From Eledone cirrhosa (lineage: Eukaryota): DNA of 64,000 bases. This document shows, piece by piece, positions 9,990 through 31,877 of this stretch (positions within the stretch are counted from its first letter, which is position 1; every line of letters starts with the position of its first letter). A model generated the notes under the pieces. That model was not told where the DNA came from and searched no databases. It was given only the letters and a program-made list of their open reading frames with translations. Where the stretch lies: assembly GCA_964016885.1 (NCBI GenBank), contig OZ024744.1, forward strand, positions 112,654,001-112,718,000, in the 5' to 3' direction. The position numbers were made by a program, and so were the translations under genes.

Positions 9990-10780
9990 TAATATATATA
10001 TATGTATTTATATATATGTATGTATATATATATATATGTATGTATATATGTATGTATATATATACATACATATATACATGTCTTTTCGTGGGGTATGTTT
10101 TTAATTAATTTTTGTATTCTGAAACATTTGTTGGTCACTGGACTCGGGAATGTCACGACAGAAGTTTGTGGAAGTTACACAAATATTTTAGTATATTTTA
10201 GCAGAGCAATCCTTATTTATATTTTACATTTTACATTTACTTACATCTCAATATAACATGGCTAAAATTCAAATTTTGCAAAGAGAAGAAAACGGTCAAA
10301 TGAACTAGATACATCTCACTGTCCCCCACCACCACAATAACGTCTACACTCCCTCCCCACCATCACATGTCATTACCCCATCTAGACTAAAGTCATCGAC
10401 CTGTTGTCAAACTCTCTACTCTCTGTTGAATGTGTATATATATATATATGTATGTATGTGTGTATATACATCACTCAGTCAAACGACCAGATTTCAACCC
10501 TAACATCTACAACAACAACAACACCGGCACTAATGATTACAGCAACAACAGCTTCAGAATGAACAGAAGTGAACATTTACAACAACAACAACAGAGGCAT
10601 CAAACGATAAGAAAAAAAAAGAAAAAAGAAAAAGAAGGGAAAAAATAACAAACAAAAAAACTCAAAATAACAAAACACACACACACACGCACACAACAGA
10701 ACAACAACATCAACTGCCACCACCACCACCACCACCACCACCGCCGCCGCCATCACCAGCGACCGGGCCTTAAGAAAACA

Positions 10781-10915
10781 ACTTTTGGCACGGATCCAGC
10801 GACTTGCCCAGCGCATCACTGGTACTCTCTTTTGTTGACTCCGTGGGTATGAAAGGCAAAGGTTGACCTCGGCGGGATTTGAGCTCAGAGCGTGGAGGGC
10901 CGTGACTCTATGCTG
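10781..10915 (-). mobile_element. Degenerate tRNA-derived SINE (same family as 43739)
   Basis: atgaaaggcaaaggttgacctcggcgggatttgagctcaga matches the reverse complement of the SINE core. Confidence 0.7.
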
Positions 10916-11045
10916 TAAAGCAATTATAATAATACTGGACTGTAGTACGATCGGCTTCAACTATACAAACTCTTGAAAGTCAACAGTTGACATAATCTTG
11001 TAATCTTGTATCAGTAATGACGGTAATATATATATATATATATAT

Positions 11046-11320
11046 ACATGGAAAGTTATATTTAAATTGTTGGGTTACAACGAGTAAATATTTATAACTG
11101 ATATAAAAGCACTCAACAAGTATTTGGAGTATATTTACGATATTAAATAAATGGAAACTATATTTATAAAACCATATTTATTTCATTATATATATTTCAG
11201 GGATATCATATTAACAATATGTTATGCCTTCTTCAGACAAAATACAATATAGACAGTTTTATAAATAAATAGATTTGACATACCTTTCAACATCGACTTG
11301 CATTTGAAAAGTTGATTTGG
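11046..11320 (-). mobile_element. PLE family B 3' end with tail; HHR at 11179-11244
   Basis: Reverse complement of ~13150-13415; core CTGAAGA..GAAA-tatata-TA. Confidence 0.75.
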
Positions 11321-11379
11321 CATATATATATATATATACGATATTAAACAAATGGAAACTATATTTATAAAACCATATT

Positions 11380-11445
11380 TATTTCATTATACATATTTCA
11401 GGGATACCATATTAAAAATATGGCATGCCTTCTTCAGATAAAATA
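11380..11445 (-). ncRNA. Hammerhead ribozyme motif, PLE family B inverted arm
   Basis: Reverse complement of 13219-13284. Confidence 0.75.
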
Positions 11446-11606
11446 CAATATATAAGCAGTTTTATAAATAAATTTGACGTACCATAAAATATTGAAACTT
11501 CCATTTAAAAAAGTTGGTTTGGTAGTGAAATGTTTGTAAATATTTAGTGTTAAGTACAGTTAGAAAGAAAGACCGAGAGAAGGAATAAATGTATGTAAAG
11601 AAAAAC

Positions 11607-11850
11607 AACTTCACTATCAGGCTTACTCTGGCAACTTAAACATGATAACGTTGGATATTCGTTGTTTTGGAATATAGTCTCAAGAGGGATTCCCTTTAAT
11701 TCCTCATCTGAGACATGTGACCTCTGCGTAGAGGAGATATTCTTTATATTAAAATCTAAAAATTCCCTTAATCTAAGGAGCAATTTATTCAGTTGCTGCA
11801 GACATAGATTGAACTCAACGTTTAAATATAAATATAAATTTAAAATGTAG
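11607..11850 (+). pseudogene. C-terminus of PLE GIY-YIG endonuclease
   Basis: Translates TSLSGLLWQLK..WNIV..CDLCVEE..LN.RS.L.S.CRHR, a typical PLE endonuclease tail. Confidence 0.75.
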
Positions 11851-13218
11851 TATATTTAGTTATGATATTTATTTAATTAATTATGAAACATGACGATAAA
11901 TCTTTTATTTATTTAATTAATTATGAAACATGACGATAAATCTTTCGATTCCTTCAACTTTTTCTTTTTTTAAACCTTCTTCATAATTATATACTAATGA
12001 TGTAATTAAACTACTCTAAAATGTAGATGCTCCCAATCTATTGAATAAATTTTACGCTAGATAAACTTCTATACTAAATATAAGAGCATCTGTAGAACAA
12101 CAGGGTCTCCTAAATCTTTTAAATGATTTCTGCGAGATAAGTCTTGTTGAATAATTTCGATTTTTTGTTTGCTCTTGATTCTGATTGCTTCTAATGAACT
12201 TGGCAATATATTGTCAGATAAATTGGAAGGGTTGATTTCTGTGGTTGATATGGGGGGCATACTGTGTTTTTTTAAGGCCCTAGACACTCTAGGGAGTGAT
12301 GAAAGTATTCTTAGCGTTTTGATATATTGATTTCTGTTGTCTATTCTATACATGAACGATAATCATGTATGTGAGGGCAGGAATATTAATATTAATATAT
12401 ATTTTATATTTTTTATGTATGTGTATGTATGTATATATATATATAGTAAAATCTTTTATAACGCAAAGGAAAATTTTTTCATGTGAAATAAGAAATTACA
12501 GAGCTGATCACGTATGTATATCTATAGTGTCAACTAGAACTTGAGATGACCTTCTCTTTTTCTCTTTCTTTCTTTTTCTGGAAAGTACATATATACTTAT
12601 GTATTTTGAGGTTTTACCTCAGGTTTTAATATATCGACCTAAAAATTTTTAAACTAAACATATGGTCATTATTTTTCACACATTATATATCTATGTCTCA
12701 TTCATGAATATTGATATTTACAGTATAATACCCAATTCATATGAATTGATAATTCAAATTGATAGGACATAACGTAAAGTTATAAATCTGTCATCCTTCT
12801 CTCTTGATATAACTCTTTCTTCTCCACCCTCTATACATGATGTAATTTTATGTATCGCTGTTTTCTCTTTAGTTATATATCTCCGTCTCCTTAACACTAT
12901 AACTAAATAAATAAATAAATAAATAATTACAGTACCCCCCCCACCCTAAATCTCTCAATTTGCATGTTGAATTATTATTATTCATCTGTTACCTCAGCTG
13001 CCTCTCATTTTTCACCTCCTCACTATTTCTCTCCCATATCTCTCTCTATCTCTCTCTGTTTTTCTTTACATACATTTATTCCTTCTCTCGGTCTTTCTTT
13101 CTAACTGTACTTAACACTAAATATTTACAAACATTTCACTACCAAACCAACTTTTTTAAATGGAAGTTTCAATATTTTATGGTACGTCAAATTTATTTAT
13201 AAAACTGCTTATATATTG

Positions 13219-13284
13219 TATTTTATCTGAAGAAGGCATGCCATATTTTTAATATGGTATCCCTGAAATATGTATAATGAAATA
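13219..13284 (+). ncRNA. Hammerhead ribozyme motif, PLE family B
   Basis: tattttat-CTGAAGA-agg..ccatatt/aatatgg..cct-GAAA-tatgta-TA-atgaaata. Confidence 0.8.
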
Positions 13285-13865
13285 AATATGGTTTTATAAA
13301 TATAGTTTCCATTTGTTTAATATCGTATATCTACTCCAAAACTTGTTGAGTGCTTTATATCAGTTATAAAATATTTAATCGTTGTAACCCAACAATTTTA
13401 AATAAAACTTTTGCATGTGTGTGTGTGTGTGTAAGTGAGTAGAGTAGCGTGTGTGTGTTTGTTTGTATGTATGAGTGTTGCTGTGTGCGCGCATATGTAT
13501 GCGCGTGTGTGTATGTCGTACGTATAAGTGTCAATAAGTGATTTTTTTTTTTTTTTCTTTTTGCGCTGCGACAGAAATAATCGGGCTGGATGCCCGATCG
13601 CGCAGTTAAACCACTGGGAGTGAAGAACCCCTGGTCCTTGTCAGGGCATTCTTCTAGGAGAAGGCATCTCAGGAAACTGGGTTTACTCCGACATAAAACC
13701 TTCGGCTCAGTAGTTACCGATGATGTTGATCTTTTCTTCTTTTCGGGTTATAGCTACTGTCGCTCAGAGAGTGGGATTGGCTCAGTGCACAGTCTTTCCT
13801 CACTTTAAAAATATTCGTCACGCACAGGCATTGCACGAGTGCATTAATAATTATTAATAGTGTAC

Positions 13866-13911
<46 letters not shown>

Positions 13912-14118
13912 GGCGACCTACGTAGTAAATCGTATCATCGTGAGCTCCGCAAAGGTTTGTTATTTCCGTTTGTTAAAAATTGCCATTTATGGAAAATTTT
14001 ATTGTTAACTGTTTATAAGCACACATACATTGTTTTCCGAAAAGGACACCCAAAAAGATTGGGGCCTTGTGCCCAAAATTTTAACTTTTATTATTATCCA
14101 AAAATTTCTTTGAAAAAA

Positions 14119-16095
14119 ATGGCTAATTCCCCTCTGCACGAAGCAGCTGAAAGCCTTCCTCACAAAATAACACCTCACACCGACACCACCATTGTAAATG
14201 TTACTACGTTTGCCAACACAAAAAAAAATATAAGCAGTAGCAATATTTTAAATTTGTCTCAGGCAGACATTCATTTCCCGCCATTACCAATGACTGCAGG
14301 TGTTAAAGCCTCCACCACCACCACCGCGACAACCCCCACCCCCACCCCCACCCCCACCCCCACCACCACCGCGACAACAGAAACAAAAGAAGAAAAAATA
14401 AATTAACTCGTGATGTCGAAATGAAATCAAGCAAAATGGACTCTTCCGCACCAAAGACGACTGACGTCACCACCACCACAACTGAAACTAAAATTAATAT
14501 TAACACAAATAACGATAGCAACAACAACAACAATGACATTATAAAACCGACCCTCAGTTTCGCCATAGTAGCAAAACAATTCGAAGCTTTCACGGTAACT
14601 CAAGAGGATTTAGAAAATGCCAAACAAATGGTAAAGAAAGATGGGTACAGGGTCAGCCTCACCCCCCCACCTAATAAAATGGAGCATCGGCGCCTATGCA
14701 CCGTGTCGTATAGAACAATGTAAAATCGCGCCGAGTGGAACGGGCATCCGAGTCCCAAATCCAAAAAGCTTTGGGACATGTGTGGGCAAGAAAAACCCAC
14801 ATCAGACGTGGGCAAAAGTATGGAACCGTGGATGTGTTCTTTGAAACACCAGAGGAGGCTAGAGAACACTCCATGGACCCATTAAAAAGTGACGACTTCA
14901 CACTCGTCCCAAGCTATTGTGGCCAGAGACTCGTAAAGATCAGGGTGACCCACGTTCCACCGGCCATCGAAATTCCCTGGCTAATAGCGGCTGTCCTCGC
15001 CGGCATCGAAGCCAACACGAAAATAATAGCAATAGCAAAAGAAAAGCAGGAAAACTGGTCCGAATCTGGGATGGAGCTCCTAATCCAAGCGGACCAAAAA
15101 AGCATTGAGGAGATCCCACAGGTAATAGACCTCACTGACGGCAGCCACCTCACGGTAATTGTCGAGGGCAGAAGGCTTAGGTGTGCCGTTTGTGGTGAAG
15201 GAACCCACCTAAGGGCTTTCTGCCCTCAGGCTAAAAGGTTGAGGCCACATCTCCTACCCACCCCAGTGACACAACCATCAACACCACCAGTAGCAGAGAT
15301 GGCAGCAACAACTGTAGCAGCAACAACAGAAGCAACTATAACAGCAACAACCCCAGCAACAGTAGCAAAACCAACACCACCACCACCCAACGCTTCAGAA
15401 CTAGCACCAGCGCCTACACCATCCACCACACCACAACCAAAACTAACGGCTGTGGACGATTTTCCACTCCCCGGCCTATCACAACTGGAGACAGATTGTG
15501 ACGACGAGGAGTGGGAAACGATATCCGGAAAAAAAAAAGAAACCAAAAAAGAAAAAATTCTCTTCCTTCCCCCTCCAAAAACAAAATACAGAGGGAAACA
15601 AATAAACTAAGAAACAAAAAAGTTAGGACAGATATGCCACCATCTACACCAGCATCACCAACCCCATCAACCCAAACACCAACACCATCACCATCATTAA
15701 CTCCAACACCACCATGACCTACACCACAAAAGTCACCAAAATGCGAAACAGAAACAAACCCACAACAAACGCAAACAAAACAAAACAACCAAAACGATAC
15801 ACACTACACAGCATTAAATTTGAACAACAAGCAATTATTGCACTACATCCAACACAACACCAGCATCACAGAAAAAGACTACACAACAACCCCAAAATTC
15901 ACACCACCTCCACACATACAAATCACTCGCATCACACAGAAAACGTACATGACACTAAAACAAAAATTCCCCAAAGACATCGGAGACTTCCGACAAGCAC
16001 TCTCCAGGAGGATTTATAAGGACATCCTTCCTGAGGAGGCCACAAGCAGTGAAAAGGATGAAAAAACCGTCCTTCCCCTACGAGAAGTAAGGTAA
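14119..16095 (+). pseudogene. Tx1 ORF1 (gag-like, CCHC knuckle), frameshifted
   Basis: Consecutive ORF pieces from MANSPL; CAVCGEGTHLRAFC knuckle; Pro/Thr-rich linkers; homologous to 23790-25323. Confidence 0.8.
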
Positions 16096-16129
16096 GTGGT
16101 CTTTCCCATCTTTTCCACTCCTTTTCAAC

Positions 16130-19100
16130 ATGACCTCACTCAGAATAGGCAGCATAAATGCGCGTGGCTTGGGGTCGTCATGGAAGCAGGGCCACCTGCT
16201 CAACGACCTCAGGTCACTAAACATAGATGTAGTGGCCATCAGCGAGACCAGAATCTCCGAAGCACAGGCTTTCGCACCGATCTTCGGCGGCTACGATGTG
16301 TACGCATCTCCCAGCCGTCCGGGATCGGGGGGAGGAGTTGCTGTGCTTTTTCGGAGAGGTTTGGATCTTGCCATACGGGCCATCTTCCTGGACCCAGAAG
16401 GTAAGTTGGTGGTGCTGGACGTGACCAGCGGAGACGGGCAAGCTTTCAGGTTAGTGGCCGTCTATGCCCCGACAGGAGCAGGGCGGCCTGATTTCTTCCG
16501 GCGTCTGGAGACCTTTCTTGGAACGTCTCGCTCTTTAGTGTTAGTGGGCGACTGGAACGGGATCTTAGATGCACGCTGGGATTGTGTGGGATTAGTGGAT
16601 AGGGAAGGAGGGTACAAGAGTCTCACCAACCTGCTCAGACGTTTTGAACTGTCTGACAGGTACCGAATGGATTTCCCAAATGTACCAATGTGGACTTGGA
16701 CAAATCGCATAAGGTCATCCAGATCATATCTAGATAGAGTATTTTGTAGGGAAATAGATAGGTCTAGCATAGGCTGTCCACAATTCAAGATAGTCAGCTA
16801 CACGGACCACAAATTCGTGATCTGTGTGCTTGACTTAGATAGGCTTCATAGACGAGGACCCGGCTACTGGAAGCTAAACGCGTCCTTACCAGCGCGCAAG
16901 GCCTACAGAGACCGGATTAGCGAACTAGTTAAGCGGGCGTTGACGGGGGCCATCGTCAACAACAAGTGGTGGTTTGCTCTGAAAAGAGCAATTAGAATAG
17001 AGTCCATTAGGTTTAGTAAGACTTTAGCAATAGAGAAAAATAGAGCAGAGGGAGAATTAGTTAGAAAATTAGAGGAGGCGCTTAGCAAAGGCATCGCGAC
17101 CGACGTACTTGCGGCGAAATTGGCCCTTGACCAATTCTTCAATGCAAAGCACGAAGGCTGCGTTGTCAGAGCTAGGGTGCGTGCTCTCAGACACGAGGGG
17201 ACGAAAGCCGTTCAATGGGCCCGAGTGGCGGAGGCGCGTCGTGACAACAAAGCCACGATCCGGTCTTTGGTGGACCACGACGGGCGCATGCTACTCGATC
17301 CCGGGCAAATGTGTGAAGCTTTTCAGCGACACTTCGCTCAACTGTTCGGGTGCAGTGGCGGGCCGGATCGAGGGATGGGCTTTAGTGTCTACCTCGACGG
17401 ACTGCCGCGGCTTTCGGCCACTGAGGCAGAGTGTTGCGAAAAGCCGATAACAACCGCTGAAGTACAGGATGCAATGACTAGTTGCACAAGGGGTAAATCG
17501 CCTGGTTTGGATGGTCTGCCCTATGAACTTTACGTACAAATGCCAAACTTATTCGGAGGCCTCTTGGCGGACGTCTACTGCAACTGGCAACAGAACGGGA
17601 GAATTCCCAGCTCTGTGAGCCGAGGAGCGGTGGCGCTGCTGAGAAAGGATCCGAACAAGGGGGATAACATAGATAATTTTAGGCCCATAACTCTGCTAAA
17701 CACAGAGTTCAAGATTTTGGCCAAGGTGCTAGCAAAGAGGTTGGCGCTTGTCGTTGGTGGTCTGGTGGGAGAGGCACAGACATGCGCCATTTCCGACAGA
17801 TCCATCCACGACAACCTCCACCTCATGCGATACATCGTAGAGAGGGTAGCTAGGGAACCTGGCACGGGTGGGTCTTTGATCAATTTAGATCAGTCGAAAG
17901 CCTTCGATAGGGTCGACCATCGTTACCTAGCGGCAGTCCTGAGGGCGGCTGGCTTTGGGCCCGTCTTCAGAGGCTGGATCGCTGCCATGCACAGCGACAT
18001 CTGCTCTGTAGTGAGAGTGAACGGTCACCTGTCGGAACCGTTCAACATCATGCGCTCGGTCCGCCAAGGATGTCCCCTCTCGTCCCTCTTGTACGTATTG
18101 ACTCTCGAGCCATTACTGCACAAACTGGAGACGTTGAGGGGGGTCCCGCGCGAACTAGGATGCGGAAGATCCGTGTCAGCATATGCCGACGATGTCACCG
18201 TAGTGGTGTCGAACGCCAAACACATCGAGGCGATCGGCACTACACTAAGAGAATACGAAGCGGTGACAGGAGCAATGATCAACCAGGAAAAGTCAGTGGG
18301 CCTGCAGCTCAGCACCTGGAGAGGCAGGTCCATGCCGTCCAACAGCGTCGTCGGGCGCTGGACGGACGGACCGGTTAAATTGCTAGGGGTCTGGTTCGGT
18401 CCAGACCTCCAGACGGACAAAAACTGGGACGAGGTGACGAGCAGGGTGGCTTCTCTCACCCAGAAATGGGCCGAGAGGAAGCTATCCCTGAAAAGTCGAG
18501 CGGAGGTGGCGAATGCGTACATCGCATCTGTCATCTACTACCGCCTGACCGTCGTACCTTGTCCTAAGCCCCGCCTGACTGCGCTGGAGCGTTTGCTCTT
18601 TCGCTTCTTGTGGAAGGGACGCGCTCCGATGGTCAGGCGGTCCATCTGCTGTCAACACCCGTTACGTGGAGGGCTGGGCATGCCGTGGCTGATGATGCGC
18701 AGACACGCGCTCAGGCTACGACATCTCCACCTCTTCCTCGACGGTGATCAGGTGTGGTCGCCGTTTGCGAGACACGTTTTTCCCCAGCTCGTCTCCTTGA
18801 CGGAGCTGCAGTCCTGGGTCAAGCGAAGACCGAGAGGGAGCGCTTGGAGACTGGAATGTCTTCAGGCGCTCACAGCCCTCGACCAATCGGGCAATGTGAT
18901 CGGTGGAAACTCCACCTTGGCGTTCTATAGGGGATTAGTGGAGGGGAAGAGCGACGACGTACTTGGGGAAACTCTAGGCGTCGACGAAAATCAACTAGCC
19001 AATCTCTTCGGAAGGACTTTCGGGCCGGGGCCTATGGACAACTTCCAGAAATCCCTGGCCTGGCAGTGCTACCGAGGAGCTTTGCCAGTTCGGGATAAAC

Positions 19101-19492
19101 TCTACAGGCATGGAGGTGCCGTCAGCCGGGCATGTCCGAGATGCGCGCAGGGCGACGAAACCGTCCTGCACGCACTCGTCCAGTGTCCGAGCATTGCTGA
19201 CTTGTGGGTTTATGTCGAACACCTGCTGTCACGTGTAGGACGGATCCAGCTATCAGCTGAGTCCATCGTGAGGATTGCCCCGCCCCCTTCCTTTAGCCGG
19301 GAAGGGCAGGCAGTTTTTATCTGTCTGGTGGCCATGGCGAAAGAGATAGTATGGTGGACACGTTTGAAAGGGCTGAAGACGAGCACTTACCTCTTCGGTG
19401 ATGCCCTGATTAACTTTTTCAAATTTCATTTGAAAAGGAAAATCAGGGTAGAGAGGGAAGTGCTCTCTTCCCAGCATTTTGTTGAAAGATGA
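16130..19492 (+). CDS. Tx1 ORF2: APE endonuclease, reverse transcriptase, C-terminal zinc motif (1120 aa)
   Basis: SINARG, GDWN, YLDR, TDH endonuclease motifs; PGLDG, RQGCPLS, YADD RT motifs; CPRC..ET..H...C; TGA at 19490 is TGG in family 2, so probably truncated by ~19 aa. Confidence 0.95.
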   Translation: MTSLRIGSINARGLGSSWKQGHLLNDLRSLNIDVVAISETRISEAQAFAPIFGGYDVYASPSRPGSGGGVAVLFRRGLDLAIRAIFLDPEGKLVVLDVTSGDGQAFRLVAVYAPTGAGRPDFFRRLETFLGTSRSLVLVGDWNGILDARWDCVGLVDREGGYKSLTNLLRRFELSDRYRMDFPNVPMWTWTNRIRSSRSYLDRVFCREIDRSSIGCPQFKIVSYTDHKFVICVLDLDRLHRRGPGYWKLNASLPARKAYRDRISELVKRALTGAIVNNKWWFALKRAIRIESIRFSKTLAIEKNRAEGELVRKLEEALSKGIATDVLAAKLALDQFFNAKHEGCVVRARVRALRHEGTKAVQWARVAEARRDNKATIRSLVDHDGRMLLDPGQMCEAFQRHFAQLFGCSGGPDRGMGFSVYLDGLPRLSATEAECCEKPITTAEVQDAMTSCTRGKSPGLDGLPYELYVQMPNLFGGLLADVYCNWQQNGRIPSSVSRGAVALLRKDPNKGDNIDNFRPITLLNTEFKILAKVLAKRLALVVGGLVGEAQTCAISDRSIHDNLHLMRYIVERVAREPGTGGSLINLDQSKAFDRVDHRYLAAVLRAAGFGPVFRGWIAAMHSDICSVVRVNGHLSEPFNIMRSVRQGCPLSSLLYVLTLEPLLHKLETLRGVPRELGCGRSVSAYADDVTVVVSNAKHIEAIGTTLREYEAVTGAMINQEKSVGLQLSTWRGRSMPSNSVVGRWTDGPVKLLGVWFGPDLQTDKNWDEVTSRVASLTQKWAERKLSLKSRAEVANAYIASVIYYRLTVVPCPKPRLTALERLLFRFLWKGRAPMVRRSICCQHPLRGGLGMPWLMMRRHALRLRHLHLFLDGDQVWSPFARHVFPQLVSLTELQSWVKRRPRGSAWRLECLQALTALDQSGNVIGGNSTLAFYRGLVEGKSDDVLGETLGVDENQLANLFGRTFGPGPMDNFQKSLAWQCYRGALPVRDKLYRHGGAVSRACPRCAQGDETVLHALVQCPSIADLWVYVEHLLSRVGRIQLSAESIVRIAPPPSFSREGQAVFICLVAMAKEIVWWTRLKGLKTSTYLFGDALINFFKFHLKRKIRVEREVLSSQHFVER

Positions 19493-19790
19493 GTGAGAGA
19501 AGCAAGTATGGTTCGAATGAATGGGCCTTCTCTGAGTATGTGTCTGTAAATTAAAGGTGGAAAACTGGGAGAGGGCACTTGCCCTGGTGGTCAGGGCCAC
19601 TATGGTCTTTTAATGGGCTTTCTCCACAAATGTCCCTCGGAAGTCTCCCCCCTATTGGGGAATTTTTCTTTGTTATTTTATTTCAACCTCCGTTTTTTAC
19701 ACGCAGAAATGCCCATTTGTACCGCCCTGTATTGTCCTGTACTGTCCTTAATGTCTACTTTATGTAAACCCTTGTGGTTAATAAAGAAAA

Positions 19791-19832
<42 letters not shown>

Positions 19833-19869
19833 TATTATTACTTTTTTTTTTTTTTTTTTTCTCAATTCA

Positions 19870-22800
19870 ATGATGTTCCAGAACAATATAAAAGAGATAA
19901 TTGGCAATTTAGGTTCTGGAACAAAAAAGATAATTGGCAATAAGGGCAGGGGCCCCAGGTTATCACAGCCTGGGTCCGCTCGTCATCGTGCCATTGTAAT
20001 AGAGCCAAACAAGGCATTTAGTCTTGGCTGCTGGAACGTACGGACGCTGCTTAACAGGGATTCCTTGGGGCGTCCTGAACGAAGGACCGCTCTTGTTGCA
20101 AAGGAACTTCGACGTTACGATCTCGACATCGTGGCTTTATCTGAGACGAGGATAGTGGAGATGGTCATCTTACAGAATTGTGTGGAGAATATACATTCTT
20201 CTGGAAAGGAAGAGATGAAGGAACCAGAAGAGAGACTGGGGTAGGATTTGCTGTTAAGACTGTGATTGTGAACAAATTAGAAGAATTCCCAGTAGGGATT
20301 AGTGAGCGTCTTATGTCCATGAGAGTTCCGCTGGACAAGGAAAGATATGCTACCCTGGTGAGTGTGTATGCTCCAACTATTAGTTCTGTCGATGAGGAAA
20401 AGGTGTCCTTTTACCATGCCTTGAAAGGTGTTTTAAGAAATATCCCTCAGGCAGACAAAGTCATCGTGCTTGGTGACTTTAATGCTAGAGTGGGTAGGGA
20501 TTTTAACACATAGAATGTAATCGGAAGGCATGGGGTGGGAACGTGTAACAGCAATAGTATGCTCCTGCTGCAGATGTGTGAGGAGCTGGATCTGTGTGTT
20601 ACCAACACCATGTTCCAACAAAAGAACAAATTCAAGACCACATGGATGCATCCTGCATCTAAGGAATGGCATCTTTTGGACTACGTCCTAGTCAGGATGC
20701 GTGACAGACAGGATGTGCAGTGTGTTCGTGTTCTTCGTGGAGCTGAGTGCTGGACGGACCACCGCCTGGTACGCGCAAAAGTGAAACTAATCACTAAACG
20801 TAAAATCCGGGCTCCTGGTGTTGCCCTGCCCAAAAGATTGAATGCTGCTCGTCTTAAGGATAAAAATGTGAAGAGGACATTGGAAGAAGAGATGCAGGCT
20901 GCAGATCTTGGTGAGAATTGGCCGACCCTTAAAAAGTCGGTTTATGATGTAGGCAGGCGTGTTCTGGGATTGGCGCAGAGGAAACATCAGGACTGGTTTG
21001 ATGAGAATGATGTACATATAGAAAACTTGTTGGCTGATAAGAGGCGTGCTCTGTCACGCTACTTGACGGCAAAACCACAGGAGAGGAATACGTTGCATGA
21101 GGAACTCAGGGATGTAAAATCACGTGTTAGGCGGAGTCTTTCTCAGATGAAGGATCAGTGGTGGAGTGAGAAGGCTGGTGAGATACAAACTGCGTCTGAT
21201 TCCAATAACACAAAGCTGTTGTACAGTCTCTTGCGTGAGGTTTATGGACCGTCTTCTTCTCTGGTGACACCGCTTCGCAGCAAGGATGGCAAAGAACTTC
21301 TTCGAGACTCACAAGGAATTCTACGAAGGTGGCGAGAGCACTTTGATGATCTTTTGAATCAGCCGTCTGTCGTCAGTGAAGATTTCCTCAATCTCATTCC
21401 AGAAAGTCCTGTGAAAGTAGCTCTCGCAGAACCTCCGACGCTTGTGGAGGTTGCAGTGGCTATTTCGAAGCTGAACAGTGGAAGATCTCCAGGTATGGAT
21501 GGCATACATGCTGAGCTCCTACAATATGGTGGTGAGAGACTCCTGCAACATCTTCACTCTTTGTTTGGCTGGATATGGGCTAATGAATCCGTACCTGAGG
21601 ACTGGAGAGATGCAGTAATGGTGGTCTTGTACAAGGGAAAGGGTAACAGGAACGATTGTGGGAACTACAGAGGTATATCATTGCTTTCTGTCGTAGGGAA
21701 AGTTTTATGTAGGGTGCTTCTGGACCGTCTGCTGACACACATTGAAGATTGTGTTCTTCCTGAAAGTCAATCTTGTTTTCGTGCTGGACGCGGCACTACT
21801 GATATGATCTTCTCAGCTAGACAGCTCCAGGAGAAGTGCATGGAACAAGGCTTGGATCTGTATCAGGTTTTTGTCGATCTGACAAAAGCTTTCGATACTG
21901 TTAACAGACATGCAGTATGGAAGGTTCTCCAGAAACTTGGTTGCCCTGATAAGTTCCTTGCTTTAGTTAGGTCTTTCCATGACGACATGAAGGCTTGGGT
22001 TAATGTCGGGGGTAACATGTCGGAGCCTATCTCAGTAAAAAATGGAGTGAAACAGGGGGATATTCCAGCACCGTCCCTGTTTGCCATATACTTTGCAATG
22101 GTTTTCTGTATTGCATTCAGGAATTGCGAGCATGGTGTTTACATCCGATATCGAACCTCAGGCAGCATATTTAACATCAGGCGCTTTGCTGCGAAGACAA
22201 AAGTATTTACATCAATCATAAGAGACGTCTTGTATGCAGATGATTGCGATCTTGTAGCGCACACAGAGAGTGATATGCAGCACATTTTGAATGCATTTTC
22301 TGACGCTTGCACTGCCCTAGGTCTGACTGTCAGTCTCAAGAAAACCGTCGTCATGTACCAACCTGCCCCTGGTAAGCAGTACACTGAACCAAACATCTAT
22401 GCGTATGGCAAACGACTTAGAGTGGTTGATCAGTTTGTCTACTTGGGAAGCACTGTCAATCGATACAGCAACCTTGACAGTGAAATCTCACTTAGGATTA
22501 GGAAAGCAAGTGATGCTTTCGGAAAGCTAGAAAGGCGACTCTAGGGTCGGCGAGACATATGCAGGAGGACAAAGGTAAAGGTGTACAGGGCATGTGTGCT
22601 CTCTTGTCTTCTTTATGCCTGCGAGACCTGGGTCACATATCGACACCACCTTAAGCAATTGGAGCGTTTCCATCAGATGTGTCTCAGACGGATCCATGGC
22701 GTTCACTGGAGGGACCACATCAATGATGTCGAGATTTTGGAAAGCTCTATGTGTGACAGTATAGAAGCTCTTGTGCTTAAGCAACGACTCCGTTGGAGTG

Positions 22801-23414
22801 GTCACCTTGCCAGGATGAAGGATTCTAGAATACCAAAACAACTCTTTTATGGAGAGTTGGTTAAAGGAAAACGACCGCCACATAAACCAAAAAAGAGGTA
22901 TAAGGATTCATTGAAAGCCTCTCTGAAAGACGCTAACATCTCTGCTGATACATGGGAGAATATTGCTGCAGATTGTAATAAATGGAGAAAGACTGTATAT
23001 GAGGGAAAAGTTGCCTTTGAGGCATCTCGAATCGCATACGAGAAAGTAAAGCGGGATGTGAGGAAGGGCATTGCTGTTACACTTCCAGACGGCGAGGGTC
23101 CTCCTATGGCGCTGACATGCAGCGTATGTGCGAGACTCTGCCTAAGCAAAGCTGGACTCGAAAATCATCTTCGCAGTCATAAAGTAAGACCAGTGGTTGA
23201 CTACCAGGCTGCTGTTGGAGATGCTACTCATCATGCTTGCCAAACATGTGGTAGAGAATGTAAATCAGCAGGAGGGCTCAAACGACATGCAAAAGTACAC
23301 GAACTCCAACCACAGCCGACTATTCCGAGTGAATGTTTTGGTTGCCGACTCTGTGCAAGACATTTTAGATCATTGGCTGGGCTAAAAAGCCACATTCGAT
23401 CGCAGCGCTGTTAG
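19870..23414 (+). pseudogene. RTE ORF: APE endonuclease, RT and three C-terminal C2H2-type fingers
   Basis: WNVRTL, GDFNAR, WTDH, QGDIPAP, YADD; frameshift near 20155, TAG stops at 20511 and 22542. Confidence 0.92.
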
Positions 23415-23789
23415 TTGCTACCGTGTGTGTGTGTGTGTGTGTGTGTGTATAGGTATGTTTATGTGTGTGCGTGTGTATGTGTGTATATATATGTATATGT
23501 ATATCATTATTGTTGTTGTTGTCGTTATTATTATTGTTGTTATTATTATTATTATTATTTTTTTTTTTTTCTTCTCGTGCAATGGCCATACTCGATAACG
23601 AGGGGGCAGCCATCATATGTGTGTATATACATCACTCAGTCAAACGACCAGATTTCAACCCCAACATCTACAACAACACCGGCACTGCCACCACCACCAT
23701 CACCACCACCGCCGCCATCATCATCACCAGCGTTCGGGCCTTAAGAAAACAACTTTAATAATAATAATTAATAGTGTATTATTATTATT

Positions 23790-25323
23790 ATAAAGACGAA
23801 CATTTGGCCAAAGCGTGGAGGCTAATTAAATGGGAGAATTCCTGGGCAAACCTGACCATCCCGGACGAGGCAATAGCGGCCATGCAAAGGAGGACGGTGT
23901 GCTTTCGATGCATTTCGGTGCAGGCACGAAAAGTGGAACTTGCGAGCCAAGCAGAGGTCGAGGCTGCTTTGGAGTACATTGGAAGTAACATAGAGTACAA
24001 AGCAAGAGGCAAACAGTTCGGTACCATCTCAGTACTGTTCAAAACCGAGGCCCTCGCTATTAAGCACTCGGTGACCCCCTGCAGAACGGAACGCATTATC
24101 ATGCATCCGTCCTACATGGGCAAAAGGACAGTAAAGGTCCGCATTCCCAGCATCCCACCAGGAATTGACATATGGTGGCTGGTGGGATGCGTAATCGAGG
24201 AGGGGACAGACACTACCCTCCTGGATATCAAAAGGACAGAGAGAGAGGACTGGTCCGGAATGGATTTGGAGATTCTTCTCCAAATGAAACCGGAGGACAT
24301 GAATAACATCTCGGATTTTGCTCGCCTGCAGGACGCGACAACAATCCAACTAATCATTGACGGAAGAAGGCCACGCTGCTTCGTCTGCGGGGAAACAACG
24401 CATCTGCAAGCCTTTTGCCCTCAGCGCAAGAATGCAGGGGGTCGCAAACCTCCTTTGTTGCCAACCCCCGTGTCAGCACGGAAAGCTGCACCACCACCAC
24501 CACCAAAAACAACACCAAAACACGGACACCAACATCAAAAACAGCCGGATCACCACCAACACCAAAAGCAATCCAAGGGGAAAACGAGGAAAGCTCCCCC
24601 CCCCCAATTATACACATAGACAAAACAATAAACGCACACACAGACACAGAGACACTCACAGCCACAGACCCTTTGTCTTCCAGCAGCGAAGATGAAGGAA
24701 AACCCAAAAGTGCAAAAAAAAACAGAGAAAACTCACAAAAAAAAAAGCCCCAACAAAACATAAAAACATACACAACAAAAAATACAGACATCACTAACGC
24801 AAACACTTCCCCAATAACATCAGCACCAACAGCAACATCGACACCACCCCCACAATCCCCGAAACGCAAACAACCTAAACAAACACAAGTACAAATAAAC
24901 ACACAAATACCTGAAATTGCAGACACCACACCTACAACAAACACAGACATACCTGAAACAACACCACTAAAACCATCACCACCACAGTCACCAAAACGAA
25001 AACAAATAAAACCAGACCAACAAAATGTTAAAAACTTCGTGCTTATCAGAAGAGCCAACGATAAACTAATGGCACTCTTAGCACGAAGCGAGGACATTCA
25101 AACAGAGGGGAAGATTTTTGAAATGAGTTAATTTTGCGTGCCAGAAGATTTGCTTCTGGTCCGAATGTCACTCAATTCCTTCAAAGAAATTCGAGAGCTT
25201 TCCTCAAAACGTGGGAACCCCGAATGTGAAACCCACATCAAGACTTTTAAAGGGGTTCCCAAAAGAAACCCCACCAACCATAGAGGTCGAACCACCCGAC
25301 CTTCACAAGACCCCGGGAGGTAA
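23790..25323 (+). pseudogene. Tx1 family 2 ORF1, frameshifted
   Basis: ORFs 23774-24619, 24415-25131 and 25138-25323; homologous to family 1 ORF1. Confidence 0.8.
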
Positions 25324-25356
25324 GTAAACCTTCCCTCTCTCTCTTAGCTTACCAAT

Positions 25357-28300
25357 ATGGCCATATTAAGAGTAGGAAGTTTAAATGTTCGCGGCCTGGG
25401 GTCACCCTGGAAGCAGGGTCGCCTGCTCAACGACCTCAGGTCGCTGGAAATGGATGTGATTGCCGTCAGCGAGACCAGAATTTCCGACACGCGCGCGCTA
25501 GCCCCCATTTTCGACAACTATCAGATCTTCGCATCTGTTAACAGGCTGGGAATGGGGGGTGGGATGGCAGTGATGTTTAGGAAAGGAGTGGATCTCGAGG
25601 TAAGGTCGATCTTCCGGGACCCGGACGGTAAGTTGGTGGTCTTGGATGTGAGCAGTAGCGAAGGTGGTGCCTTTAGACTGCTGGCCGTCTACGCCCCTAC
25701 AGGGGCCGGACCACCAGACTTCTTTAGGCGCCTGGAGACCTTTCTGGGTACGCTTCTCCCTTTAATGTTAGCGGGGGACTGGAATGGCATCTTAGACGCA
25801 CGCTGGGATTGTGTGGGCGTAGCCGATAGGAGCGGGGAGTGCAAAATCCTCAAGCACCTACTCAGCCAGTTCCAACTGTCTGACAGGTATCGACTAGATT
25901 TCCCCAATGTGCCAGTATGGACATGAACCAACCGAATGGGGTCATCTAGATCGTATATCTTCATTAGGAAAATAGATAGAAATAGTGTGGGCTGCCCACC
26001 TTTTAAAACGGTCGCCTATTCAGATCACAAATTTCTGATCTGTACGGTCGACCTAGATAAAACGCGTAGGTTAGACCGGGTTACTGGAAGCTGAACATGT
26101 CATTTCCGGCACGTAAGGCTTACAGGGACCGAGTCAACAATTTAGTTAAGCAAAAGTTGACAGGGGGGATCATCAACAACAGATGGTGGGGGTCTCTCAA
26201 AAGAGAGATTAGAGTAACTTCGATAGAGTTCAGCAAAGAACTAGCGTTAGAGAAAAATAGAAAGGAGGGGGAGCTGGTAGATAAGTTAGACGAGGCTATT
26301 TATAGTGGCATTGCAACTGACGTGCTAGCGGCGAGAATGGCATTAGACCATTTCTTCAATGCCAAACACGAAGGTTGCATTGTCAGAGCTAAGGTGCGTG
26401 CGCTGAGAAACGAGGGAACCAAAGCTGTTCGATGGGCCCGCGTGGCGGAGGCGCAGCGTGGTAATAAACCCACAATTCGGTCTTTGGCGGACCGAGACGG
26501 ACACGACATAAGCGATTCCAAGCGGATGTGTGAGGCCTTTCGCCAGCACTTTGTTCGGTTGTTCCGGGAGAGTGGCGAGTCAGAGAGAGTAGCGGATTTC
26601 AGTCCCTACCTTGACGGCTTGCCGCGCATCTCGACGGTCGACGCTGAGCGCTGCGAAAGGCCGATTACTTCAGCCGAAATTCAGGACGCCCTTGTCGGCT
26701 GCATGAGGCGCAAGTCACCCGGTTTGGATGGGCTGCCCTACGAGCTTTACGAAAATATGCCAGACTTGTTCTCAGAACTCCTCGAAGCACTCTACTGCAA
26801 CTGGCAACAAAACGGGAGTATTCCCAGTTCTGTGAGCCGGGGCGTAGTGACGCTGATAAGGAAAGACGAGAACAAGAGGGATACATTAGACAACTTCAGG
26901 CCCATAACTCTGCTCAACACAGAGTTTAAGATTTTGGCCAAGGTGTTAGCAAAGAGATTGGCGCTTGTCGTCGAGGATTTGGTTGGGGAGGCGCAAACTT
27001 GCGCAATCCCAGCCAGGTCCATACACGACAATCTCCACCTCATGCGATACATCATAGAGAGGGTAGGGTGTAAACCTGGCTTCGGTGGGGCACTGATCAA
27101 TTTAGATCAATCGAAAGCATTCGATAGGGTCGACCATCGGTATCTGGAGTTTGTCCTCAAAGCAGCTGGCTTCGGCCATGTCTTTAGAAGCTGGATCGCT
27201 GCAATGCACAGCGGCACACGCTCGGTGGTCAAGGTTAATGGCCACCTCTCGCAACCACTTCGGCTCTCCCGATCGGTCCGTCAAGGGTGCCCTCTCTCTT
27301 CCCTTCTGTACGTATTGACTCTCGAGCCTTTACTGCGGAAGCTGGAGCTGTTGCAGGGCATCCCGCTCGAACCGGGACGTGGAAAGGCGGTGTCGGCTTA
27401 TGCGGACGACATCACCGTGATGGTGTCGAACACCTCAGAAATCGAGGTGGTCGGCACCTTATTGAAGTAATATGAAAGGTTGACAGGAGCCAAACTTAAC
27501 CCGGAAAAGTCGGTGGGCTTGCAGCTCGGAACCTGGAGAGGCAAGCCCATGCCGTCCAACAGCGTCGTGGGGCGCTGGACGGACGGACCGGTAAAGTTTC
27601 TCGGGGTTTGGTTCGGACCAGACCTCCAGGTGGAAAATAATTGGGACGAGGTAACGAGCAGAGTAGCCAGTCTCACTAAAAAAATGGGCTGGGAGGAAGC
27701 TATCACTGAAAGGTCGCGCGGAGGTGGCGAATGCGTACATCGCGTCCGTCATCTACTACTGCCTGACCGTCGTGCCTTGCCCCCGTCCGCGCCTCGTCAA
27801 ATTGGAACGGCTCCTCTTCAAATTCTTGTGGAGAGGACAAGTTCCGTTGGTGAGGCGGTCCATCTGCTGCCAGCACCCTCTACGCGGAGGGCTGGGCATG
27901 CCGTGGTTAATGATGCGCAAACATGCGTTGAGGCTGCGACATCTCCAGATATTCTGCCTCAACGGTGAACAGGTGTGGTCGCCGTTTATCAGACGGGCCT
28001 TTCCGCAGCTCATTTCTTTGACTGAGCTGCAGTCCTGGGTCAAGAAGAGACCGAGACTGGGTGACTGGCACCTGGAATGTTGCCAGGCTCTCACTGCGGG
28101 CAATGCGATCAGTGGAACTTCCACTCTCGAGTTCTATAGAGAATTAGTGGTGGGCAAGTGCGATGACGCACTCGGAGAAGCTTTGGGCCTCGACGAAGTC
28201 GAACTGACCAGTCTGTACCGGAGGACCTTTGAGCCGGGGACGATGGAGAATTTCCAGAAATCCCTCGCTTGGCAGTGCTACCGGGGGGGGGGGGGGGGCA

Positions 28301-28767
28301 TTGCCGGTTCGAGATAAACTCTACAGGCACGGAAGTGCTGTCAGACGGACCTGCCCAAGATTCGCACAGTACGACGAAACCGTTCTGCACTCACTTGTCC
28401 AATGTCCGTGCATTACTGACTTGTGGAGTTATGTCGAACAGCTACTGTCGCGTGTGGAACGAATCCGGCTATGGGCCGAGTCCATAGTGAAGATCGATCC
28501 ACCGCCTCCCTTAGGTCAGGAAGGGCAGGAAAATTTCCTCTGTCTGGTGGCAGTTGCAAAAGAGGTTGTATGGTGGACCAGGTTGAAAGGACTGAAGACA
28601 GACACTTTTCTCTTTGGCTAATCCCTCATCAATTTCTTCAAGTTTCACCTGGAAAGGAAGGTGAGGGTGGAGAGAGAATGCTGCCCCCCAGTACATTTGC
28701 TAAAAGGTGGGTGAATGTGGCGAGAATGGCTCGTGTGAATGGGCCTACTCTGACCATGCGCCTATAG
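25357..28767 (+). pseudogene. Tx1 family 2 ORF2, multiple stops and frameshifts
   Basis: ORF pieces 25357, 26097, 27480, 27724 and 28229 align collinearly with 16130-19492. Confidence 0.92.
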
Positions 28768-29048
28768 GCTGGCTAACTTGAGGAGAGGGGTGCTCTCGCT
28801 GGGTGCTCTAGAAGCGCAGGGTGGTTCAGGATTGGTGGGGTACCCGAGTCACCCCAGGTTCGTCCACCCCCTATCGGGGAATTTATTTTGTTATATTTAT
28901 GCATAGTTTATTTTATATTTTTATATTTTCATTGTTAAATTAGTCTTGCCATTGTGCACTTTTACTCGACCTTATTGTAAACCCCCACTGTCCCTGTCTT
29001 TGTATTGTCCCCTACATGTCGGCCCTGGTGGCTAATAAATGAAATCAT

Positions 29049-29165
29049 CGGTGAGTTCAAATCCCGCAGAGGTTTACTTTGCCTTTCATCCTTATGGGGT
29101 CGATAAAATAAAGTACCAGTAATGTACTGGGTAATTGCTGGCCTTGTGCCTAAAGTAGAAACAAT
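29049..29165 (+). mobile_element. 5'-truncated SINE between Tx1-2 and RTE copy 2
   Basis: gagttcaaatcccgc..gcctttcatcc..gtgcctaaagtagaaacaattatt. Confidence 0.85.
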
Positions 29166-29218
29166 TATTATTATTATTCTTGTTACTATTATTATTACTT
29201 TTTTTTTTTCCCATTTCA

Positions 29219-30987
29219 ATGATGTTCCAGAACAATATAAAAGAGATAATTGGCAATTTAGGTTCTGGAACAAAAAAGATAATTGGCAATAAGGGCAGGG
29301 GCCCCAGGTTATCACAGCCTGGGCCCGCTCGTCATCGTGCCATTGTAATAGAGCCAAACAAGGCATTTAGTCTTGGCTGCTGAAAACGTACGGACGCTGC
29401 TTGACAGGGATTCCTTGGGGCGTCCTGAACGAAGGACCGCTCTTGTTGCAAAGGAGCTTCGACGTTACGATCTTGACATCGTAGCTTTATCTGAGACGAG
29501 GTTAGCTGGAGATGGTCATCTTACAGAATTTTGTGGAGAATATACATTCTTCTGGAAAGGAAGAGATGAAGGAACCAAAAGAGAGGCTGGGGTAGGATTT
29601 GCTGTTAAGACTGTGATTGTGAACAAATTAGAAGAATTCCCAGTAGGGATTAGTGAGCGTCTTATGTCCATGAGAGTTCCGCTGGACAAGGAAAGATATG
29701 CTACCCTGGTGAGTGTGTATGCCCCAACTATGAATTCTGTCGATGAAGAAAAAGTGTCCTTTTACCATGCCTTGAAAGGTGTTTTAAGAAATATCCCTCA
29801 GGCAGACAAAGTCATCGTGCTTGGTGACTTTAATGCTAGAGTGGGTAGGGATTTTAACACATGGAATGTAATCGGAAGGCATGGGGTGGGAAAGTGTAAC
29901 AGCAATAGTATGCTCCTGCTGCAGATGTGTGAGGAGCTGGATCTGTGTGTTACCAACACCATGTTCCAACAAAAGAACAAATTCAAGACCACATGGATGC
30001 ATTCTGCATCTAAGGAATGGCATCTTTTGGACTACGTCCTAGTCAGGATGCGTGACAGACAGGATGTGCAGTGTGTTCGTGCTCTTCGTGGAGCTGAGTG
30101 CTGGACGGACCACCGCCTGGTACGCGCAAAAGTGAAACTAATCTCTAAACGTAAAATCCGGGCTCCTGGTGTTGCCCTGCCCAAAAGATTGAATGCTGCT
30201 CGTCTTAAGGATAAAAATGTGAAGAGGACATTGGAAGAAGAGATGCAGGCTGCAGATCTTGGTGAGAATTGGCCGACCCTTAAAAAGTCGGTTTATGATG
30301 TAGGCAGGCGTGTTCTGGGATTGGTGCAGAGAAAACATCAGGACTGGTTTAATGAGAATGATGTACATATAGAAGACTTGTTGGCTGATAAGAGGCGTGC
30401 TCTGTCACGCTACTTGACGGCAAAACCACAGGAGAGGAATACGTTGCATGAGGAACTCAAGGATGTAAGATCACGTGTTAGGCGGAGTCTTTCTCAGATG
30501 AAGGATCAGTGGTGGAGTGAGAAGGCTGGTGAGATACAAACAGCGTCAGATTCCAATAACACAAAGCTGTTGTACAGTCTCTTGCGCGAGGTTTATGGAC
30601 CGTCTTCTTCTCTGGTGACACCACTTCGCAGCAAGGATGGCAAAGGACTTCTTCGTGACTCACAAAGAATTCTACGAAGGTGGCGAGAGCACTTTGATGA
30701 TCTTTTGAATCAGCCGTCTGTCGTCAGTGAAGATTTCCTCAATCTCATTCCAGAATGTCCTGTGAAAGTAGCCCTCGCAGAACCTCCGACGGTTGTGGAG
30801 GTTGCAGTGGCTATCTCGAAGCTGAACAGTGGAAGATCTCCAGGTATGGATGGCATACATGCTGAGCTCCTACAATATGGTGGTAAGAGACTCCTGCAAC
30901 ATCTTCACTCTGTTTGGCAGGATATGGGCTAATGAATCCGTACCTGAGGACTGGAGAGATGCAGTAATGGTGGTCTTGTACAAGAGA
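29219..30987 (+). pseudogene. RTE copy 2 ORF (endonuclease to start of RT)
   Basis: ORF 29373-30932 nearly identical to copy 1, with different lesions. Confidence 0.92.
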
Positions 30988-30988
30988 A

Positions 30989-31021
<33 letters not shown>

Positions 31022-31456: not shown

Positions 31457-31504
<48 letters not shown>

Positions 31505-31655
31505 ATACTTTGGGAGGGTCATGTTGCCAATAAGAAACACACGCACCAGTTGCTTTCACTTCAATTTAATTTAATATATATTTATAAATTTACAAATTTA
31601 TAAATTTCTGGTTGGTTGGTTGGTTCCACAACCAGATAGTTGTTTATATATATAT

Positions 31656-31700
31656 AGTCATAGTTCTTTCGTCACACACTCTGTGACCTCTTCAGTGACT
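31656..31700 (-). ncRNA. Hammerhead ribozyme motif, PLE family A
   Basis: Reverse complement of 31833-31877. Confidence 0.8.
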
Positions 31701-31832
31701 GGGGATTTCTTTCTTCGTTTCTGTGCCTTTCCTTTCTTCTATCCTACGCCATTTTGTTTGTGTAGGATAGAAGAAAGGAAATGGCGTAGGATAGAAGAAA
31801 GGAAAGGCACAGAAACGAAGAAAGAAATCCCC

Positions 31833-31877
31833 AGTCACTGAAGAGGTCACAGAGTGTGTGACGAAAGAACTATGACT
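31833..31877 (+). ncRNA. Hammerhead ribozyme motif, PLE family A
   Basis: agtca-CTGAAGA-g-gtcac agagtgt gtgac-GAAA-gaac-TA-tgact. Confidence 0.82.

Follow-up and report, generated by a model that had tools for sequence, protein, structure and literature searches.

Two (ATT)n-inserting Tx1 LINE families probably landed independently in an RTE leader of Eledone cirrhosa

In a 64,000-nucleotide stretch of the Eledone cirrhosa genome (contig OZ024744.1, positions 112,654,001 to 112,718,000, forward strand; here called the window), two copies of one RTE retrotransposon are each split in the leader by a LINE of a different Tx1 family. Does this arrangement reflect a dedicated relation between both kinds of element, or ordinary nesting in a simple repeat? 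The original prediction had favoured the former and proposed that Tx1 is a special hyperparasite, a LINE living within another LINE.

Results

The flanks that gave rise to this proposal were confirmed. Within the window, the common 5' flank of both Tx1 copies (TTAATAGTGTA) is confined to 13854 and 23768, and the common 3' flank leading to the RTE ORF (TTACTATTATTATTACT) to 19826 and 29183. The RTE copies are near-identical (97.5% over 1,780 bp) and the Tx1 copies represent diverged families (74.9% over 3,442 bp; ORF2 proteins 68-72% identical). The shared flank is the consensus leader of the RTE, which is uninterrupted in most of 30 ORF-anchored genomic copies.

All features with an assigned strand lie on the plus strand. 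The RTE unit starts about 1.5 kb 5' of the ATG, and in three RTE copies its 5' start is the same and follows a (TA)n/(TATG)n run. In RTE-1, the 5' extension (10080..11030) holds an inverted old SINE and microsatellites; four other RTE copies match it at 88-90% identity in their upstream part. Its (TA)n run is interrupted by one or more unrelated insertions (11031..13419, no strand assigned), visible as a gap in the alignment to L229-L232 and containing inverted repeats (11052-11561 versus 13103-13411). The remaining extension, a T-run and the RTE 5' UTR core follow (13420..13854, core from 13563), with 95-98% identity in other RTE copies and 851 exact 20-mer matches in the whole genome. The left half of the (ATT)n leader tract (13855..13911), which matches empty leaders elsewhere, borders full-length Tx1-1 (family Tx1a, 13912..19791), in which ORF1, with a CCHC knuckle, is broken and ORF2 (16130-19492, 1,120 aa) is open. 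The right half of the tract with a T-run, likewise read from the sequence (19792..19869), leads to the single RTE-1 ORF (19870..23414), for which Pfam gives APE, RT and C-terminal C2H2 fingers and which is broken by a frameshift and stops. The 3' UTR (23415..23616) consists of microsatellites including a second (ATT)n tract, a T-run and a terminal segment, a layout conserved in our trailer samples.

The 5' extension of RTE-2 (23617..23768, matching 10455-10785) is shortened and starts from the unit's internal (TA)/(TATG) run. Of its two internal deletions, one took out the UTR core: about 670 bp of the leader, including the entire core, are missing at a TTAATAAT microhomology, and this junction was absent from all other loci examined. 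Upstream of Tx1-2, the window offers no RTE UTR core to drive it. The left half of the tract, again read from the sequence (23769..23790), is followed by Tx1-2 (family Tx1b, 23791..29048), identified by Pfam, which has a broken ORF2 and, compared with full-length copies, is 5'-truncated by about 624 nt. Next come a 5'-truncated SINE with an (ATT)n run at its end (29049..29163), recognized from other copies in the window and in other RTE leaders and trailers, the right half of the tract with its T-run (29164..29218, by sequence), and the RTE-2 ORF (29219..30989), recognized by Pfam and its identity to RTE-1, which is broken and 3'-truncated, ending at 30989. Since the SINE abuts the end of Tx1-2 with no ATT run in between, it likely hit the Tx1 tail later. 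The predicted (TTA)n landing pad does belong to the RTE leader and received independent hits from two Tx1 families and a SINE. The layout as first drawn was correct overall, but needs amending for the missing start of Tx1-2, the lost leader core and 3' truncation of RTE-2, the damage to both RTE ORFs and the direct contact between the SINE and the Tx1-2 end.

With a single ORF encoding APE and RT, no ORF1 and a simple-repeat 3' end, the host element agrees with the RTE clade as described in PMC9115989 and PMC2887409. An Rfam scan of the leader yielded no ribozyme or other RNA at gathering score, and spliced retrocopies were absent among 119, 195 and 31 copies of three candidate splice sites, in a sampling that favoured unspliced copies. 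By description only, the element resembles RTE-2_OV of Octopus vulgaris, whose sequence, PMC13282606 states, was not reported: judged by PMC9115989, both have a single ORF encoding endonuclease, RT and a C2H2 finger, and a microsatellite 3' UTR beginning at the ORF end. They differ in the length of the ORF region (about 3,540 nt here versus 3,327 nt) and of the leader (about 1.5 kb versus about 600 nt; same paper).

The inserted elements encode an ORF2 with the Pfam domains Exo_endo_phos, RVT_1 and zf-RVT, that is, APE, RT and a C-terminal zinc-binding region. The best PDB match of Tx1-1 ORF2 is human L1 ORF2p (E=1e-50, versus 1e-21 for R2). Both ORF1s carry a CX2CX4HX4C knuckle, and a Pfam scan of the two ORF1 fragments gave no domain match and thus no Transposase_22; a type I ORF1 with a CCHC knuckle instead of Transposase_22 marks the Tx1 clade in PMC5203782. 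Judged by ORF2 domains and ORF1 type, both elements would accordingly fit the Tx1 clade (L1 group). The close homologues retrieved in homologue and Atlas searches carry no clade names.

Outside the window, 109 of 118 Tx1 copies have at least three ATT units in the 3' flank, and ATT units are present at 27 of 40 scorable 5' junctions, versus 11% in random sequence. The RTE leader adjoins only 3 of the 118 copies (Tx1b 3/59, Tx1a 0/59), or 2.5% of flanks, and Dong-type LINE tails adjoin about 30, as read by eye from the flanks. Hence one microsatellite, (ATT)n, occupies more than 20% of Tx1 flanks on both insertion sides, and the RTE leader as host transposon stays below that share. The most fitting reading of Tx1a and Tx1b is as relatives of Kibi and Koshi with specificity for (ATT)n microsatellites. 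Their 3' ends have 8,140 (Tx1a) and 1,462 (Tx1b) exact 20-mer matches in the genome; candidate numbers from DNA searches were discarded as copy numbers, since Tx1a had 851 candidates versus its 8,140 exact matches.

Tx1-clade APE/RT LINEs residing in microsatellites include Kibi in (TC)n and Koshi in (TTC)n of fish, and crocodilian families in (TTCC)n/(TTTC)n (PMC4494074 and PMC3812793). The families described here differ in main target, (TTA)n/(ATT)n, in their octopod host and in their thousands of copies; a few copies lie in (TTC)n, the Koshi-type target. We found no (ATT)n-targeting Tx1 in the published literature, Repbase entries and subscription papers being outside that search. Tx1L in Tx1D, and Tx1-9_AMi and Tx1-Mar in DNA transposons, are likewise Tx1 elements within another transposon, but are specific for the host element (more than 20% of flanks, the rule applied in PMC4494074), whereas here the target is a simple repeat.

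How often, then, are RTE leaders hit? Of 147 leader tracts, 11 (7.5%) held Tx1a or Tx1b, with 7/95 in the position-ordered subset; so did 8 of 59 tracts in the RTE 3' UTR, or trailer (Fisher p=0.19 versus leader), and 4 of 21 random (ATT)n tracts (p=0.10 versus leader, random being higher). The genome-wide expectation is about 7% (4.7-11.5%; binomial p=0.87 for the leader), calculated from corrected exact-match counts over about 157,000 tracts (97,000-241,000), a total that is extrapolated from 21 tracts counted in 400 kb and also covers tails that the elements themselves produced. Only contig C1 supplied the position-ordered samples; similarity-ranked samples are biased to young copies. Tx1 hits leaders about as frequently as other (ATT)n tracts, the outcome that the original prediction had named as its refutation, and a special LINE-in-LINE relation is not supported.

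Tx1b alone, however, was found in 6 of 147 leaders and 5 of 59 trailers, together 11 of 206 RTE tracts versus 1.1-1.8% expected (p=2e-5 to 1.4e-3 for both kinds combined, p=0.006-0.05 for the leader by itself). On soft denominators, this looks like an over-representation of about 2-5 times in RTE tracts of both kinds. A modest bias of this size towards (ATT)n tracts within young RTE copies, leader and trailer alike, might have arisen if these copies lay in open chromatin or if the two bursts overlapped in time and place. Such a bias would agree with the leader adjoining 3/59 Tx1b copies even though leaders make up about 1% of tracts, and with one RTE copy whose leader holds Tx1a and whose trailer holds Tx1b. 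Mean pairwise divergence is 7.2% in Tx1b versus 3.1% in the RTE, so only the younger part of Tx1b could have hit RTE copies. Still, we consider this bias unlikely: the position-ordered leaders gave no significant excess (2/95, p=0.28-0.51), Tx1a showed none (6/95 versus about 6% expected), and many present tracts originated later, from younger families (Dong-type, 1.5% pairwise), which inflates the denominator. Trailers, moreover, are struck no less often than leaders, so nothing points to the promoter end.

Genome-wide, at least 40 junctions between Tx1b and the RTE leader exist, and the Tx1 insertions are sense-oriented, as expected if Tx1 targeted the leader for the RTE promoter or for a ride in RTE transcripts. 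But it is the strand of the tract that dictates the orientation, leaders hold no excess of Tx1, and the RTE share of Tx1 flanks is well below the 20% rule (PMC4494074). The composites arose mostly by independent insertions: 42 loci have 32 distinct 5' breakpoints, in 22 of them the leader of the RTE is found no more than 50 bp upstream, at 21 different points, and both trees show composites mixed in among non-composites. No composites combined the same inner junctions and different outer flanks with clustering in both trees, and the suggested search for Tx1-in-RTE units mobilised as one came up empty. The pair L195/c002 has exactly the same Tx1b 5' breakpoint and different upstream flanks, but no rare Tx1b change and a single rare RTE change are common to the two, which is background level. 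The one clonal group, of eight copies with a common 5.5 kb non-RTE upstream flank and one RTE truncation, is a segmental duplication. In the leader-embedded Tx1a copies with full-length start that could be traced (L302, L488 and L493), RTE sequence is still present 3', so none left with the leader. Dedicated hyperparasitism is thus largely refuted, and we regard it as highly improbable. A Tx1a junction search scored 3 composites among 40 and missed the known L152, and was not used as a count.

The reverse order, RTE invading Tx1 tails, was rejected for most composites, given the leader directly upstream in 22/42. Some composites have no visible leader (for example L194, L224 and L227), and for a few the RTE-into-Tx1 order is possible.

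A single RTE copy that underwent tandem duplication locally, or gene conversion, could also have given the twin layout, and the two targets would then not be independent. In the tree, RTE-1 has RTE-2 as its sister (support 0.94), the RTE-2 unit begins right at the RTE-1 3' end, and the copies have four rare changes in common, two of them seen in 0 of about 100 other copies; just 8 of about 4,560 other true pairs reach four. Yet about 10 subfamily-diagnostic sites differ, so the copies are not simple duplicates and patchy conversion fits better. The head-to-tail joint is accounted for by RTE insertion into (TA)n/(TATG)n, which is present in 43 of 45 RTE 3' flanks. In either case the two Tx1 families arrived separately, and we give a copied target very little credence.

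Two Dong/R4-type families insert in RTE tracts on the opposite strand. In translations read by eye, two antisense inserts encode an RT and, after it, CCHC and PD..D restriction-like nuclease motifs, which we take to mark the Dong/R4 clade, and (TAA)n forms tail and target. Together, the Tx1 families, both Dong/R4-type LINEs and the SINE split 19 of 95 RTE leaders. Where Dong tails adjoin Tx1a (6/30), the insertion order is ambiguous, and these cases were kept outside the occupancy tests. Dong (R4 clade), including the snail DongBg, likewise targets TAA microsatellites (PMC3812793), but differs from the Tx1 elements here in its restriction-like endonuclease, its opposite orientation to the tract and its separate clade.

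Discussion

The tract belongs to the RTE consensus, Tx1 copies lie in (ATT)n runs in one orientation, and the leader hits are independent. Most likely, two genome-wide (ATT)n-inserting Tx1 families landed independently in the RTE leader tract, with the RTE as a bystander target. Insertion would likely proceed by ordinary target-primed reverse transcription, in which the Tx1 endonuclease may nick the (AAT)n strand, with the 3' end of the RNA priming there. Bringing along its own AATAAA signal, a sense-oriented Tx1 would separate the RTE ORF from its leader and so disable that RTE copy. The same tract takes in insertions of at least three Tx1 families, of two Dong/R4-type LINEs (on the opposite strand) and of a SINE. 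With the hyperparasite claim failing, the main result is ordinary nesting. The 20% of leaders lost in this way bear on the number of copies of an RTE-2_OV-like family that can be expressed.

A wider reading, possible but rather doubtful, sees at least six retroelement families (three Tx1, two Dong/R4, one SINE) as a guild of competitors for a single trinucleotide repeat, among which Tx1b would home in on RTE copies by preference. Carrying the repeat at both ends, the RTE would then have about one fifth of its leaders knocked out by other transposons. If true, this would be transposon-on-transposon suppression via a common microsatellite, acting on an RTE of a kind reported in octopus brain.

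The (ATT)n-specific Tx1 families with thousands of copies widen the known list of Tx1 targets, and the built-in RTE tracts provide a dated, multi-copy reporter for target sharing among transposon families.

Two Tx1 elements embedded in RTE leaders

The flanking motifs said to surround both Tx1 copies are present, each exactly twice within the window, which sits on contig C28 of the 3.0 Gb genome. The leader of the first RTE copy, RTE-1, and half of its (ATT)n tract are followed by Tx1-1, a Tx1a family copy (13912-19791), and then by the other half tract, the T-run and the RTE-1 ORF and 3' UTR, which ends at 23616. A shortened RTE-2 leader with a half tract comes next, then Tx1-2, a Tx1b family copy (23791-29048), a SINE, the second half tract, the T-run and the RTE-2 ORF, cut at 30989. 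About 670 bp of leader, core included, are missing from RTE-2, and Tx1-2 is without its first ~624 nt. The flank common to both insertions is indeed part of the RTE consensus, since leader core, (ATT)n run and T-run directly precede the ATG in most of 30 copies retrieved by ORF start.

RTE-1 and RTE-2 are 97.5% identical, the two Tx1 copies 74.9%. Although the RTEs have four rare changes in common, about ten subfamily sites separate them, a pattern suggestive of patchy gene conversion. Insertion of this RTE family into (TA)n/(TATG)n explains why the second copy, cut short at its own internal (TA)/(TATG) run, adjoins the RTE-1 end.

ORF2 of Tx1-1 is open over 1,120 aa and comprises APE, RT and zf-RVT; its nearest solved structure is L1 ORF2p. 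A CCHC knuckle in ORF1 of both copies fits the Tx1 type of PMC5203782. An Octopus sinensis protein contains a short piece 66% identical to Tx1 ORF2; together with the RTE layout, this points to an octopod cephalopod as the probable host.

Elsewhere in the window we observed a further RTE-like ORF whose RT domain is followed by a PHD finger (45400-48129, minus strand), two related fragments resembling another R4/Dong-type LINE with RT and a nuclease-like motif (50257-52219 and 57198-58267), large inverted-repeat (foldback) elements within (TA)n runs (5114-8143, 31497-32036 and 8717-9993), a DDE_3 transposase fragment (40915-41766), a 49-bp tandem array (60929-62026) and a further Tx1a copy reduced to a short 3' fragment, with 90% identity to Tx1-1 (63262-63515).

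Tx1a and Tx1b target (ATT)n microsatellites

For each Tx1 family, 59 non-window 3' ends were sampled (29 ranked by similarity, 30 ordered by position). At least three ATT units followed 109 of the 118 ends. Because a 3' tail could be the element's own product, 5' junctions were scored too, where visible within 1.5 kb and excluding internal deletions and inversions. ATT units were found at 27 of 40 scorable junctions versus 11% of random 22-mers, and (TTC)n at three further ones. Beyond the tract lay the RTE leader in 3 of 59 Tx1b copies and none of the 59 Tx1a copies, and the tail of a Dong-type LINE in roughly 30 of the 118; the remaining 3' flanks consisted of SINEs, the heads of other Tx1 elements or unique DNA. 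Under the 20% rule of PMC4494074 for calling target specificity from flanks, Tx1a and Tx1b are (ATT)n-specific, not RTE-specific. They work like Kibi and Koshi, but with a (TTA)n target, and differ in type from the transposon-specific Tx1L.

Head-to-tail Tx1 arrays are common, and a third family head, with an ORF1 homologous to Tx1a, likewise lies in ATT tracts (L037, L040, L333, L456).

Occupancy of RTE leaders is ordinary

In the original prediction Tx1 was a hyperparasite specially favouring the RTE leader, a preference that our counts do not bear out: leader tracts are occupied no more often than other (ATT)n tracts, the outcome named beforehand as refuting the idea. Tx1a or Tx1b occupied 11 of 147 non-window leaders (7.5%, CI 3.8-13%; samples of 29, 29, 30 and 60, one duplicate dropped), leaving out a single Tx1 of the third family and a Tx1b remnant of 12 nt, and 7 of the first 95 position-ordered leader matches on contig C1. 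The (ATT)n tract of the RTE 3' UTR (the trailer), equal to the leader tract in age and neighbourhood, held Tx1 in 8 of 59 cases (p=0.19). Within 40 arbitrarily placed 10-kb stretches, a Tx1a end adjoined 4 of 21 tracts of at least five units (p=0.10), though tails made by Tx1 itself push this figure up. The expected occupancy is 4.7-11.5%, given ~11,000 Tx1a and Tx1b copies (corrected from 8,140 and 1,462 exact matches) over 97,000-241,000 tracts; against 7.1%, p=0.87.

Tx1b taken alone runs counter to this: it occupied 6 of 147 leaders and, among trailers, 5 of 59, versus 1.1-1.8% expected (combined p=2e-5 to 1.4e-3), and in 2 of 95 position-ordered leaders, which is not significant. With a mean pairwise divergence of 7.2% versus 3.1% for RTE, Tx1b is on average older; this would sharpen the excess. 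Tracts made later inflate the denominator of the expectation. If real, the bias is ~2-5 fold and affects both RTE tracts alike, not the promoter end. Two trailers (L368, L380) carry ~30-bp Tx1b ends with an identical 5' point at microhomology, either independent or RTE-carried.

Tx1 is one of several occupants of the tract. Among the 95 position-ordered leader tracts 19 were split, nine by Tx1-type elements of three families (one a remnant), eight by antisense LINEs of two families and two by the SINE. In translations read by eye, both antisense families have RT together with a CCHC motif and a restriction-like nuclease, matching Dong/R4, which targets TAA repeats (PMC3812793). Several elements are stacked in one tract at L196/L515, L468 and L469.

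Independent insertion versus co-mobilisation

A junction query found 40 Tx1b-RTE loci and recovered five of six composites known independently from other anchors, so the total of direct junctions is probably near 50, an estimate biased low. Together with two added loci, the 42 composites have 32 distinct Tx1b 5' points; the RTE leader lies at most 50 bp upstream in 22 of them, at 21 points. Composites are interspersed with non-composites in both trees, and three other leader-embedded Tx1a copies with an intact Tx1a 5' end still have RTE sequence 3'. Eight loci on contigs C27 and C19 have one breakpoint and 5.5 kb of non-RTE upstream flank in common, and all five checked have the same RTE truncation; these are a segmental duplication of a dead Tx1b-RTE fragment. 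The sole co-mobilisation candidate is one composite pair with an exact Tx1b breakpoint in common and no excess of shared rare changes.

The duplication family (L202, L204, L207-L212; C27 13.0-15.0 Mb, C19 39.8 Mb) has at least eight copies, 96-98% identical over >6.5 kb, and L225 and L227 are perhaps further members.

Structure of the RTE family

The RTE unit starts ~1,500 bp upstream of the ATG. Exact 20-mers number 851 for the leader and 1,646 for the ORF end genome-wide, and exact-match rates of 19/25 and 12/21 give an estimated ~1,100-1,500 leaders. RTE is itself microsatellite-associated, with (TA)n/(TATG)n/(TG)n in 43 of 45 3' flanks (L164-L192, L363-L392). Its layout is similar to that of RTE-2_OV as described in PMC9115989.

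A ~1.1 kb 5' extension, seen in L229 (an intact copy's leader) and at 10080-13574 in the window, opens with a conserved donor-like GGG|GTAAGT in 28 of 31 copies and closes with a T-run plus AG, resembling a retained intron or a 5' transduction out of one master locus; no spliced copies lacking it were seen among the sampled copies, a biased sample. A short non-autonomous derivative (L240, L242 and L254 in random stretches; L008, L289) begins at the T-run boundary and joins the UTR core to the RTE 3' terminus; three copies per 400 kb make many thousands genome-wide likely. A very young subfamily (L279, L282, L284, L290, L294, L296, L301; 0.1-0.7% pairwise), several copies of which have a leader variant with AGTGTAGT, is possibly still active.

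Mechanism and consequences

For Tx1, the target repeat, its orientation, the independence of insertions and their ordinary frequency are established. From known Tx1 and L1 biology, the Tx1 endonuclease would nick the (AAT)n strand, which would then prime, with variable 5' truncation. The published literature searched, outside Repbase, subscription papers and supplements, yielded neither an (ATT)n-specific Tx1 nor a report of Tx1-in-RTE nesting in octopods (PMC4494074, PMC3812793, PMC4640811, PMC13282606, PMC9115989, PMC12988792, PMC6007223, PMC5203782 and the abstract of PMC2887409). Active L1-Tx1, RTE and Dong-R4 families are described in O. vulgaris in the available part of PMC13282606, where targets are not given. 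The Tx1-in-RTE arrangement is a real feature with an ordinary mechanism, and a small new detail. Leader-driven transcripts are predicted to end at Tx1's AATAAA signal, ahead of the RTE ORF, so that a Tx1 insertion would disable the RTE copy.
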